Of a stretch of DNA of 64,000 nt, positions 57,661-61,565 are shown piece by piece; position 1 is the stretch's first letter; each line of letters opens with the position of its first letter. Location of the stretch: positions 832,001 to 896,000 of the forward strand of contig CAVRUH010000001.1 of assembly GCA_963724325.1 (NCBI GenBank), given 5' to 3'. This stretch comes from Waddliaceae bacterium. Its GTDB lineage: Bacteria; Chlamydiota; Chlamydiia; Chlamydiales; Waddliaceae. A model generated the notes under the pieces. It worked only from the letters and a program-made list of their open reading frames with translations. It did no database searches and was not told where the DNA came from. The position numbers were made by a program, and so were the translations under genes.

Positions 57661-59910
57661 TTAGGATTTGTTCTTGGGTTTGAGGTGATGTACGCCTTCG
57701 GCCATAAGTGCAGGGCCTATTGCTGATTTATACAAAGCACGATCAAAGATGGAATCCTGCAGGTGCACTTCTTCCAATATTTTATGTACAGAACGGAGTA
57801 GCATAGTATCTGAATCCGATGCCATATTGCTATCTGAAACCAGATAGTCATATGGAAGGTGGTTTAAGAGACCGGTTAGATTTCCATCCCACTTTGCTGG
57901 GCGAGTCCATACGTCCAGATAACCATCATCCAACGATTGTTGACTTTTCACGAAAAAACCAACGCGCGGCAGCGGATATTGTGCTTTGAAGACTAAATTG
58001 ACCAGTACGTACAAATCAATGGAAGGAGGTGAAGACTGGTATAAAGCGTGCATCCTTAGTAGAATCTGATTGTTAATTAGATCAAGATGTTCTTTCGCCA
58101 TAAGCCGTGTTTCTTCCTTCATAGATGGTAGCAGATCAGAATGGATAGGGCTAAGGTCCCTGAGATGGTCCATATGTTTTACGATCACTTCGTTCAATTC
58201 ACTTGGAATTTCGCGGTATCCCAATTGAGCTTGTATGTCCCTTGGACCCAGGAGGGATGGTACAAAATGTTCCTTCAGGATAGGATCTGTAAGAAGTGCC
58301 TGATAGGCCTCTGGCAGAGACTCCAAAGGTATTAATGGTGATTTATCACCTCCAATATAGTCTATCTCATCTAAAACGGCTAATACCTGCAAGCGAAAAA
58401 AATCTAGTTCATTAGAACCATAATTTCCACTCCGTAGTCTGGAGGCATTGCTCAGAAGAGTTTTTGCAGCTTTTGAGATCTTTGCATTTGTTAAAGCTAG
58501 TTGCTCTGAAAGTAATACAGCTGTAAGTTGCTTTTTCTTCAGTTGATTATGCACTTCAATGTCTATCATATAGGGAGTAAGGAAGTTTCCTCTTGCCATT
58601 TCGGGAAGCATGTCTCCAGCAATTTCATTGAAGAATGGATCTAGGATCTTCTTTTCACCTTTCATTTCAAAAACGTAAAAGTGCTTGATTTGCTCTGGAT
58701 CTTCCTTAATGTGCTTCCAAGCAAACTTCCAATCTCCATCAAGAGGAAGGTGGTCGTAATCAAATCGTTGCAAATTCCCCCAAATAATAGCCTCTACGTA
58801 TGCAGAACGGCTATATTGAGGATACCCGATTGGAGGATAACTTTCCCCAATAAGTAGTGATAGAAATTTTTCATTTAGCTCGGGTGAAATACTTGCTGGG
58901 TCCTCTACCTGTCGTGCAAGACGCATTGCAGGAATGCTGACTGTCGGAAATTCATCGCGCAGCATATTGACAACTGCAATAATATGAGAGTCTTCCATGT
59001 TAACGTTATGGACTCCCAGTTCCATGCCGAGCTCTTTCACAGGTGCTCCTGCGAAAAAGCTTGTTGAAATAGAGATTTCTTTACCACTGCTAGAACGTAT
59101 TTGATTAAATATCGATCTAAGTTCTGCAAGTTCATTTGGCGTATTTAGAAGTTTTTGAATCTCATGGTCTAGTTGCTCACGCGCCTCTTTATAGGCTCTT
59201 CTTTGTTCAGCGGGTACAGACGTTTCCATTGAAATAGGTTTGCCTTCAAATAGCAACAAAGGACCCTTTTGGGTACTGTAAGGAGCGTCAACATGTAATT
59301 CGACTTTTGCAAGGAACTTTTGTTTTCCCTGCATTTCCACAAGATCAACACCAAGATACAACGATGCAGCAAGCTCTGCAGTATCTCCGGGTTGCAAAGC
59401 CGTATCGACCGCTCCACCCGCACCCAACAAAGCAACTGTGACAGAACCGTTGTTCTCCGCTTCATGAGCAACAATGGGCCTCAACACTGATTTTAGAGTA
59501 GGTCCAACCAAACCAGGTTGCAGCCCCATTTCAGGTAGTCGTACAACATAGGCAGTATTTTCAGGTTTAATATTTGAATGAAAGACGTAGATGTTAAGAT
59601 TCTGCGATTTATCAAGTTTTGACGGAAGGAATGGAATATTTAAGCCTAAAGCTTCAATTTTTTTAGGAAGCCATGAATCGTCTTGAACTAATTGCGGGGG
59701 GATATCGATTAGCCTTTTCCAGTGTGATCCAAGAGGCAGATTTTCGAATGGTGCACTTTCCCGTTCAATAAAAACGACCTGTCTTGGCGGGACCTCTTCA
59801 ATTAGCGCTGGTAGCACTGCAGCAATTTCCTCATCAATAATGCCAAGATGTACCGTTACACCACCGAAAACTAGGTTTGGAATTATAATTAGTAGTTTTA
59901 ATATTTTCAT
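57661..59910 (-). CDS. Large predicted exported protein with nucleoside phosphorylase/nucleosidase-like motifs
   Basis: AGGAG RBS; short signal-like N-terminus; LLGAGGAVDTALQPGD and VNMED motifs. Confidence 0.6.
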   Translation of the reverse strand: MKILKLLIIIPNLVFGGVTVHLGIIDEEIAAVLPALIEEVPPRQVVFIERESAPFENLPLGSHWKRLIDIPPQLVQDDSWLPKKIEALGLNIPFLPSKLDKSQNLNIYVFHSNIKPENTAYVVRLPEMGLQPGLVGPTLKSVLRPIVAHEAENNGSVTVALLGAGGAVDTALQPGDTAELAASLYLGVDLVEMQGKQKFLAKVELHVDAPYSTQKGPLLLFEGKPISMETSVPAEQRRAYKEAREQLDHEIQKLLNTPNELAELRSIFNQIRSSSGKEISISTSFFAGAPVKELGMELGVHNVNMEDSHIIAVVNMLRDEFPTVSIPAMRLARQVEDPASISPELNEKFLSLLIGESYPPIGYPQYSRSAYVEAIIWGNLQRFDYDHLPLDGDWKFAWKHIKEDPEQIKHFYVFEMKGEKKILDPFFNEIAGDMLPEMARGNFLTPYMIDIEVHNQLKKKQLTAVLLSEQLALTNAKISKAAKTLLSNASRLRSGNYGSNELDFFRLQVLAVLDEIDYIGGDKSPLIPLESLPEAYQALLTDPILKEHFVPSLLGPRDIQAQLGYREIPSELNEVIVKHMDHLRDLSPIHSDLLPSMKEETRLMAKEHLDLINNQILLRMHALYQSSPPSIDLYVLVNLVFKAQYPLPRVGFFVKSQQSLDDGYLDVWTRPAKWDGNLTGLLNHLPYDYLVSDSNMASDSDTMLLRSVHKILEEVHLQDSIFDRALYKSAIGPALMAEGVHHLKPKNKS

Positions 59911-59979
59911 TTTGATCTCCTTCTTGTGTATATTGTGGGCCTATGATATATTAAGTCGAGAAATAACTCAAGGAGATCT

Positions 59980-60804
59980 ATGAATAAGTATTTACCGTCA
60001 TTTTTAATTTTTATTTTTGCAACTGTTTTTCCAATAATAGCAGAAGAGGCTATTTCAGAAGGGCATTCAGAGTATATCACAGGGAAGAAAATCTATGGAA
60101 TTGGAATAAAACAAGATACGATTGCAGGTTCAAAAACCAGTAAAGGAAGGCAGGATCTGACTTCTCCAATTTGGCTAGGTGATTTATCTCGTTACATCGC
60201 ATTAAACACAGAAAGGTTCCGCCTAGTTATTGCAAATGCAAAAAAAAACAACGATCCTTATATCTATTTGCTCAATTATGCCAACGCCTGTTTATTCGAA
60301 AGTCTTAATGAAGGATTGCACACAAAAAAGTCTTTAGATTATTTCCTCGAATCGGCTTGGGCCGTAATGGCAGCTATGCAAGTTGACCGATTTCCCTATC
60401 TAAAATATACATCAGAAGAACGTACTCAAATGGCTGATCAATTTTATGCTTCTTATTTAAATGAACCTTTTGCTACAAATGATGTCGACGGAATAGCTGT
60501 GCGTATGGATCTTGTCCCTGGACTAGCCATGGAGAGACTTGCATTGCATTTAGAACTATGTACGTGGAAGTTTGACAACGCACGTGGATGGGAGTATGAG
60601 GGCTTTCCCATTGGTTATCGCATGGCAAGTCTTAAGCGTCATTTGGACTTTTTGTTTGCCCGTAAGCAAGATGAAGACCACATTGCGCACCTAATCTGGA
60701 ACTATATGGCTATCTATCAGGTTTGCATCACGCATCCGCACCTGAATGATATGCCCAACTACACAGCGATGCGAAAGGAGTCATTATGTCACAACCATAC
60801 TTAA
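59980..60804 (+). CDS. Predicted exported dATP/dGTP diphosphohydrolase-like (DUF5664-like) protein
   Basis: Signal peptide; RMDLVP..AMERLA..W..GFP..SLKRHL..DEDHIAHLIWN. Confidence 0.65.
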   Translation: MNKYLPSFLIFIFATVFPIIAEEAISEGHSEYITGKKIYGIGIKQDTIAGSKTSKGRQDLTSPIWLGDLSRYIALNTERFRLVIANAKKNNDPYIYLLNYANACLFESLNEGLHTKKSLDYFLESAWAVMAAMQVDRFPYLKYTSEERTQMADQFYASYLNEPFATNDVDGIAVRMDLVPGLAMERLALHLELCTWKFDNARGWEYEGFPIGYRMASLKRHLDFLFARKQDEDHIAHLIWNYMAIYQVCITHPHLNDMPNYTAMRKESLCHNHT

Positions 60805-61565
60805 CACCAAAAAAATTACTTGGAGGTCAATTTCCTCCGAATACTTTTGGTGATATCACAGTGGCGATTGTTGGATATTGCCCTCCCGCCGCAATTATAA
60901 ATAAATACAATGCTAAGCAACCACCTGCACAGAATTTTATTCTGCTACCCCCTGAATGCGTACGTGTCTGCAGCCATAATGGCAATCGATTTCTCTCTAT
61001 ATCACATGTTTACGGTGGACCTGTCTCTGCCGCTTTGGTGGAAGAACTGGTCTACTACGGTATCACACATATTCTTGCATATGGTCTCTGTGGCGGATTA
61101 GGAACAAAGCAATTGAAGATAGGTGATTATTATCAGGTAACAAGTGCAAGAGTATCAGATGGAACTACGCCCTCCTATACTACTGATAAGTTGATTTTTC
61201 CTTCGAAGTCATTGGGAGGATTTATTGAATTTCCCAATATGACTCCAGTATGTGCCTGGACTGTTGATGCGATTTATCGTGAATATCCCGATGATGTTCA
61301 GCGTGCCATTGAAGAAGGATGTGATATTGTAAATTGTGATTCGACACATCTTTTTGCTGTCGGGAATAAGCTTGGAATTCAGACCATGCAATGTGGTGTC
61401 GTTTCCGATTTTATAGTTGGTGAAGAGGACGCCTGTTGGGATAGTGAATTGGGAGCGATGTTAGATGGTGGTGAGGGACCTTTGGACAAGTTGAATCCAC
61501 TAGTTGAGTACTACGTGGAAACTCTTTTGCCATTGTGCACTCAGACCGCTATAAACAATAGCTAA
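60786..61565 (+). CDS. Nucleoside phosphorylase (PNP/UDP family)
   Basis: YGGPVSAALVEEL, GLCGGL..IGD, DGTT, WTVDAIYRE, VVSD. Confidence 0.85.
   Translation: MSQPYLTPKKLLGGQFPPNTFGDITVAIVGYCPPAAIINKYNAKQPPAQNFILLPPECVRVCSHNGNRFLSISHVYGGPVSAALVEELVYYGITHILAYGLCGGLGTKQLKIGDYYQVTSARVSDGTTPSYTTDKLIFPSKSLGGFIEFPNMTPVCAWTVDAIYREYPDDVQRAIEEGCDIVNCDSTHLFAVGNKLGIQTMQCGVVSDFIVGEEDACWDSELGAMLDGGEGPLDKLNPLVEYYVETLLPLCTQTAINNS

Follow-up and report, generated by a model that had tools for sequence, protein, structure and literature searches.

A candidate exported nucleotide-processing gene pair with a probably duplicated DUF5664 protein in a Waddliaceae genome

A compact cluster of three genes, here called A, B and C, was analyzed in a window of 64,000 nucleotides (G000:C1:832001-896000) from the genome of a Waddliaceae bacterium (2.37 Mb, 84.6% complete). 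Our preferred reading, to which a probability of about 0.4 is assigned, is that A and B encode an exported pair in which B makes deoxynucleoside monophosphates (dNMP) and A strips the base from them, both outside the cytoplasm, and that C is a passenger. The pair is rare and likely horizontally acquired. A sequence-only reading of the window had called the composition of this cluster unusual, which is upheld here.

Gene B encodes a protein with a DUF5664 domain, and the pattern noticed in the letters alone is confirmed by conserved residues and a borderline profile match. PF18909 matched residues 174-256 in one profile search with an E-value of 1.1e-5 and 25.8 bits (cut-off 27) and in another with 28 bits, above the cut-off, and phrog_18716 matched B with an E-value of 1.2e-10. 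W204, G208, R220, H221 and H234 are invariant in 10 of 10 aligned DUF5664 proteins and K197 in nine of them. In alignment A1, K197, R220, H221 and D231-E232-D233-H234 are invariant in all eight proteins. In the literature found, characterized DUF5664 enzymes come from phages only. The one from phage Wayne (ALY10775.1), with which B shares 26% identity over 89 aa (pairwise E-value 2e-7), converts dATP, dUTP and dGTP to dNMP (PMC12884076). Because of this activity, B likely cleaves dATP, dGTP or dUTP to dNMP and pyrophosphate, by analogy. The C-terminal half of B has the RxDLxP motif, the K, W, G, RH and H positions and the closing HPxxxD in common with the Wayne enzyme and PF18909. In contrast to the Wayne enzyme, B is chromosomally encoded in a chlamydia, bears a signal-peptide-like leader, has double the length owing to what is probably a degenerate N-terminal repeat, has the GAxKY and NW motifs altered to CTWKF and GW, and has no purZ neighbor.

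The N-terminal half of B is, judging from sequence comparison, probably a degenerate DUF5664 repeat of which only a G-x-K-x-x-K-G arm is kept. Residues 28-145 aligned to seven short DUF5664 proteins with a z-score of 6.8 (0 of 200 shuffles as good), and hidden Markov model fragments match the start as well as the end of the DUF5664 model in the correct register. In the arm region, K44, D46, G50, K52, K55 and G56 are invariant in eight of eight proteins. The same test gave z-scores of 3.3-4.9 for the B relatives P0002-P0004, while the remaining five scored between -0.7 and 2.5, and the comparison of the N-terminal half of B with its own C-terminal half was not significant. If the repeat is real, B may be a fused pseudo-dimer with a single composite active site, to which the N-terminal repeat would supply the G-x-K-x-x-K-G arm. 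The structure model of B (predicted local distance difference test score 72.6, residues 16-61 unreliable) is all-helical like other DUF5664 models. Its top viral fold match is a 305-aa DUF5664 protein of phage MalagasyRose (E-value 4.6e-3, probability 1.0, template modelling score 0.48); this modelled alignment, which spans 226 columns, suggests that the long DUF5664 form may already be present in phages. Among solved structures no clear match to the B model was found.

Gene A is a near-orphan with two homologs. It has no relevant match in Pfam, NCBIfam, PHROG or PADLOC, the profiles PF01048 and TIGR01704 gave no match at an E-value of 1 or better, and its last ~400 residues match nothing. Three weak but agreeing lines suggest that residues 17-340 probably adopt the NP-I fold of the 5′-methylthioadenosine/S-adenosylhomocysteine (MTA/SAH) nucleosidase (MTAN) type. 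When the predicted mature end G17 is aligned on M1 of MTAN (numbering checked on the E. coli gene), E28 falls on E12, M305-E306 on M173-E174, R333 on R193 and D337 on D197, which form the catalytic set of MTAN. This register was set by eye and is consistent with where the structural alignments start and stop. The five residues of A are invariant in all three proteins of its family, down to 44% identity. In the second VIA comparison of the structure model, 13 of 50 rows were NP-I chains, ten of them MTAN or futalosine hydrolase, and these alignments span residues 15-336 of the model and 0-198 of the chain. Language-model neighbors of A belong to the PNP clan (score 0.83).

A looks like a hydrolytic nucleosidase with a putative site of the MTAN type, and not like the phosphorylase first suggested. 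With the nucleosidase MtnN, residues 17-340 share the motif order, the candidate catalytic residues and the order of secondary structure elements. Unlike MtnN, however, A lacks a significant sequence match, has large insertions and 400 extra C-terminal residues, and has the first E of EME replaced by N. Exported MTANs have been described in Borrelia, namely Bgp and MtnN (PMC7557402), and a signal peptide, predicted for A, is common to these and A.

The hydrophobic starts of A and B had been read as signal-peptide-like leaders, and both are positive by our own heuristic, which was used in place of SignalP. This heuristic called none of 11 valid cytoplasmic controls and all six controls judged by eye to be exported, and it also passes 234 of the 1406 open reading frames (ORFs) of the genome. 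Leaders were found in 3/3 A proteins and in 7/9 B proteins scored, the negatives being P0007 and the homolog at L008 (see below); ciliate-code proteins were outside the scoring. The sequence of the A and B leaders is not conserved but their character is, which fits real signal peptides. No leader was found in C by the heuristic. Sec leaders direct proteins to the periplasm and not across the inclusion membrane.

According to our preferred reading, B would convert dATP, dGTP or dUTP to dNMP and pyrophosphate outside the cytoplasm, and A would hydrolyze the base off this product, giving base and sugar-phosphate; that A accepts nucleotides is our inference. The compartment would be the periplasm, or the inclusion lumen if the proteins are passed on by type II secretion, and the most likely role would be a catabolic one, with deoxynucleotides from the host being trimmed at the cell envelope. 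The resulting deoxyribose-5-phosphate would be used by DeoC and uracil by Upp. The genome encodes DeoC and Upp and has five TLC transporter matches and three secretin matches. At the given completeness, no deoB match was found in it, tblastn yielded neither purA nor purB, and none of five matches, one of them without assignment, is a clear purine phosphoribosyltransferase. The presence of DeoC without DeoB is in keeping with deoxyribose-5-phosphate being supplied by hydrolysis, but other sources of it exist.

In this way A and B would form a convergent copy of a phage logic. Z-genome phages combine DUF5664 or DutZ with the dAMP hydrolase DmtZ (PMC12884076), and the same two steps lead there from dATP via dAMP to adenine and deoxyribose-5-phosphate. 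However, DmtZ has an NDT fold, whereas A is probably of NP-I type, and the phage enzymes work in the infected cytoplasm, where they contribute to dZTP synthesis. A further parallel is the MTAN-fold protein Cap17, which cleaves ATP and dATP (bioRxiv 10.1101/2023.01.24.525353). Like the ATP nucleosidases Cap17 and DtcC, A is multidomain and probably has an NP-I domain that could hydrolyze a nucleotide. These are cytoplasmic, regulated defense effectors, whereas A has no PADLOC match and no sensor genes nearby.

The layout of the cluster, as first described from the sequence, proved correct in its ORF coordinates, divergent spacer, B/C overlap and ribosome binding site (RBS) (Table 1). The starts of A and B are separated by 69 bp, AAGGAGATC precedes both genes, and B and C overlap by 19 bp. 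A sigma70-like site lies in the spacer on the minus strand (59971-59943), the count of such sites not being above chance. The cluster is flanked by a frameshifted transposase on one side and by ispG on the other. The guanine-cytosine content of A, B and C (0.39-0.42, genome 0.40) does not suggest that they came recently from another organism. Five further copies of the DDE element, with ~73% identity, are present in the genome; its direct repeat is, at 44 bp, of unusual length, which is typical of the IS1634 group.

Table 1. Features of the A-B-C cluster and of the adjoining element, in window positions or protein residues.
Feature	Position	Strand	Description
Gene A	57661..59910	-	ORF, 749 aa; predicted signal peptide 1-16
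Gene A, N-terminal part	residues 17-340		probable NP-I fold, MTA/SAH-nucleosidase type (E28, M305, E306, R333, D337)
Gene A, C-terminal part	residues 345-749		mostly helical in low-confidence model; no match to known proteins
A/B divergent intergenic region	59911..59979		69 bp; Shine-Dalgarno-like AAGGAGATC on each strand
Gene B	59980..60804	+	ORF, 274 aa; predicted signal peptide 1-21
Gene B, N-terminal half	residues ~50-135		probable degenerate DUF5664 repeat
Gene B, C-terminal half	residues 174-256		intact-looking DUF5664 domain (K197, W204, G208, R220, H221, H234)
RBS of gene C, AAGGAG	60775..60780	+	within the end of gene B, 5 nt 5′ of the ATG of C
Gene C	60786..61565	+	ORF, 259 aa; NP-I superfamily (PF01048), without signal peptide
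Frameshifted DDE transposase element	55951..57604	-	14-bp inverted ends; just downstream of gene A; outside the module
44-bp direct repeat of DDE element	55906-55949 and 57605-57648		

Gene C is the sole PF01048 match in the genome (E-value 1.7e-11, 44.4 bits, cut-off 25.1). It matches DeoD/uridine phosphorylase with an E-value of 1e-4, far below the NCBIfam cut-offs. Its subfamily comprises at least 282 proteins, of which 120 were listed at 47-55% identity (self match excluded); those named by organism, among the matches listed, are four Anaerolineae and one Chlamydiia. The RVG[ST]CG motif of phosphorylases, whose Arg and Ser/Thr bind phosphate, almost invariably reads AYGL[AC]G in this subfamily, and the two positions are A98 and L101 in C, as they are in 118 of 119 relatives. 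EME is replaced by NCD (N183 and D185 in 119/119 relatives, C184 in 115/119). D208, C32, R165 and E166 are conserved. C keeps the base-site Asp (D208) of the NP-I hexamers DeoD and uridine phosphorylase but has neither EME nor the Arg and Thr/Ser at the positions aligned with their phosphate site, and because of these replacements it is, by its sequence, probably not a canonical phosphorylase. The PNP/MTA-nucleosidase fold, claimed originally for both proteins, holds for C through PF01048 and probably, on weak evidence, for A; the ME motif is absent from C and present only in A.

C is likely a cytoplasmic protein of its own, a passenger or loose adjunct of the pair. A hydrophobic leader was flagged in nine of its 120 listed relatives, two of them doubtful. 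Close chlamydial homologs were found in 4/400 genomes, all five proteins having leader-like N-termini by eye, and none of these four genomes matched A or B. In G299 (L051:7820-9509) a leader-bearing C homolog is convergent with an HD-domain gene, and in G395 (L052:7451-9235) such a homolog is present as a tandem duplicate.

Full-length relatives of B are likewise few. Six proteins were identified; among genomes, a full-length match was found in one of 400 other chlamydial ones (G349), three metagenome loci were found as well, and a scan of the GTDB species genomes returned one full-length locus, the same as that of G349. In this genome of the same order, B follows purB in a purine cluster (genes named by eye). 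Eleven long DUF5664 proteins form a clade of their own (support 99/96) with the window's group of four inside (99/99). A leaderless long homolog that lost the equivalent of K197 is located at L008:5576-6358. Its contig is gene-dense and intronless, encodes an SF2 helicase, a papain-like protease, FkbM and two U-box proteins, and is, in our tentative reading, giant-virus-like. Degenerate long homologs with Q/N-rich N-terminal extensions were found at L009:258-1610 and L010:2056-3027, on contigs of 22-23% guanine-cytosine content which are open through with code 6 and consistent with ciliates; part of the conserved set (RH or DEDH residues) is lost in them.

PF18909 was detected in 6/401 genomes, one match being below the cut-off and one within a phage-like stretch. 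An operon-like run (L007:5145-8641, G067:C1) consists of two P-loop kinase-like genes, one of them leader-bearing, followed by a 518-aa phosphorylase-like gene and a short leader-bearing DUF5664 gene. The 518-aa product resembles pyrimidine-nucleoside/thymidine phosphorylase (E-value 1e-56, below the cut-off), and the run represents another nucleotide-processing cluster of a chlamydia, independent of the first. The short DUF5664 gene at L006:3565-3990 (G230:C199), which encodes a hydrophobic leader and has a TGA in frame, looks like a pseudogene. A phage-like stretch with a DUF5664 gene (L056:233-3100, G101:C14) lies in a chlamydial bin and is either prophage or binning contamination.

For the linkage of the three genes, the closest A homolog (P0009, 58%) and one of the closest B homologs (P0004, 70%) are informative. 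Both are JGI singletons, each on a contig of 12,629 bp, and from this equal size they probably share one contig, which is the only sign of A and B travelling together. Among the 120 listed of 282 C homologs, none was seen by eye on a contig of the same size as that of an A or B homolog. A was found in 0/400 other chlamydial genomes, and the co-occurrence of all three genes that had been expected elsewhere was seen in 0/400 of these genomes and at none of the four other B loci with DNA, which hold neither A nor C.

The same data could also reflect three unrelated acquired genes that lie upstream of ispG in a variable region and act independently of one another, which we regard as a tentative but serious alternative. 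B would then be a periplasmic deoxynucleoside triphosphate (dNTP) sanitizer, A either a Bgp-like adhesin or an exported nucleosidase for MTA/SAH or futalosine, and C a cytoplasmic NP-I protein. Several findings favor this: the ispG flank carries wholly different, unrelated genes in a same-genus (G195) and a same-family genome (G272), neither A nor C accompanies B in G349 or on the three metagenome contigs, and leaders are common in the genome, as noted above. The close chlamydial homologs of C, in genomes without an A or B match, fit it as well. Against independence stand the equal contigs of the closest A and B homologs, the shared divergent spacer and a recurring nucleotide context, with DUF5664 beside a phosphorylase-like gene in G067 and B beside purB in G349. 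A single pathway of all three genes, in which C would carry out the last step, be it in the cytoplasm following uptake or, in other strains, as an exported protein, seems unlikely. It would account for the translational coupling of C to B, for C being the only PF01048 match and for the leader-like N-termini of its five chlamydial homologs, but C is leaderless here, has A98, L101 and NCD in place of the DeoD phosphate-site Arg, Thr/Ser and EME, and has no listed homolog sharing a contig size with A or B homologs. The exported three-gene pathway first proposed is not supported, since C lacks a leader and the phosphate-site residues and did not accompany A or B at the other loci and genomes examined. 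Its route from dNTP via dNMP to base and sugar-phosphate would also need a nucleotidase, without which a phosphorylase cannot act on dNMP.

Slimmer still is the chance that A and B reach the side of the host, where they would deplete dNTPs and block co-infecting giant viruses. Parachlamydia blocks the maturation of viral factories in amoebae, for which bacterial effectors have been suggested (PMC9457554), and NP-I ATP nucleosidases are antiviral effectors (bioRxiv 10.1101/2023.01.24.525353). The three secretin matches and the presence of the B family on the giant-virus-like contig point in the same direction. However, Sec leaders do not carry proteins past the inclusion membrane, genes as rare as A (0/400) and B (1/400) cannot explain a general protective trait, and A, B and C have no PADLOC match at an E-value of 1 or better; P0009 has two weak unrelated ones. 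Equally slim is the boldest version, an exported two-step dNTP-destroying effector pair of an intracellular symbiont that depletes the host compartment of dNTPs, starves co-infecting giant viruses and consists of a fused pseudo-dimeric DUF5664 protein, shared among chlamydiae, giant viruses and ciliates, and a new nucleotide nucleosidase with a 400-residue delivery or regulatory tail. That B or A is catalytically dead, and is a nucleotide-binding or structural envelope protein, is the least probable explanation and hardly to be expected. CTWKF and GW in B, the lost RH or DEDH residues of the ciliate-code homologs and the lack of a known fold for over half of A would suit it, but the residues of B invariant in 8/8 proteins and the five candidate residues of A, invariant to 44% identity, argue against it.

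Further features were observed in the window and in G195. An aldo-keto reductase and an HD-domain gene form a pair (53595-55636) that is kept elsewhere in the same-genus genome G195. Near ispG in G195, a cluster of a type III polyketide synthase, a methyltransferase, an oxidoreductase and a 2049-aa type I polyketide synthase was named by eye (L048:3514-13040, G195:C2). The window also encodes an 816-aa coiled-coil protein with several near-perfect ~33-aa repeats and an N-terminal membrane anchor (5612-8062), a leader-bearing collagen-like G-x-T repeat protein (41005-42066) and a 1011-aa ankyrin-repeat protein (47577-50612), whose C-terminal GSCAYQC and GHATL motifs, seen by eye, possibly mark a cysteine-protease-like effector. 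Intergenic low-complexity short-period repeats at 15444-15827 and 33095-33578 give LP, CP, RA or KG runs in several frames.

The literature searched, with subscription papers mostly outside its scope, contained no exported or chlamydial DUF5664 protein and no such module. Chlamydial symbionts block giant-virus replication in amoebae (PMC9457554), and A and B are two soluble, assayable candidates for such protection. Even on an ordinary reading, the cluster leads to three unstudied groups: the clade of long DUF5664 proteins, the family of A and, comprising at least 282 proteins, the NP-I subfamily of the NCD type. If the preferred reading is true, a chromosomal, leader-bearing and probably duplicated DUF5664 protein and an orphan nucleosidase would constitute a bacterial enzyme set for the destruction of dNTPs outside the cytoplasm of the cell that makes it.

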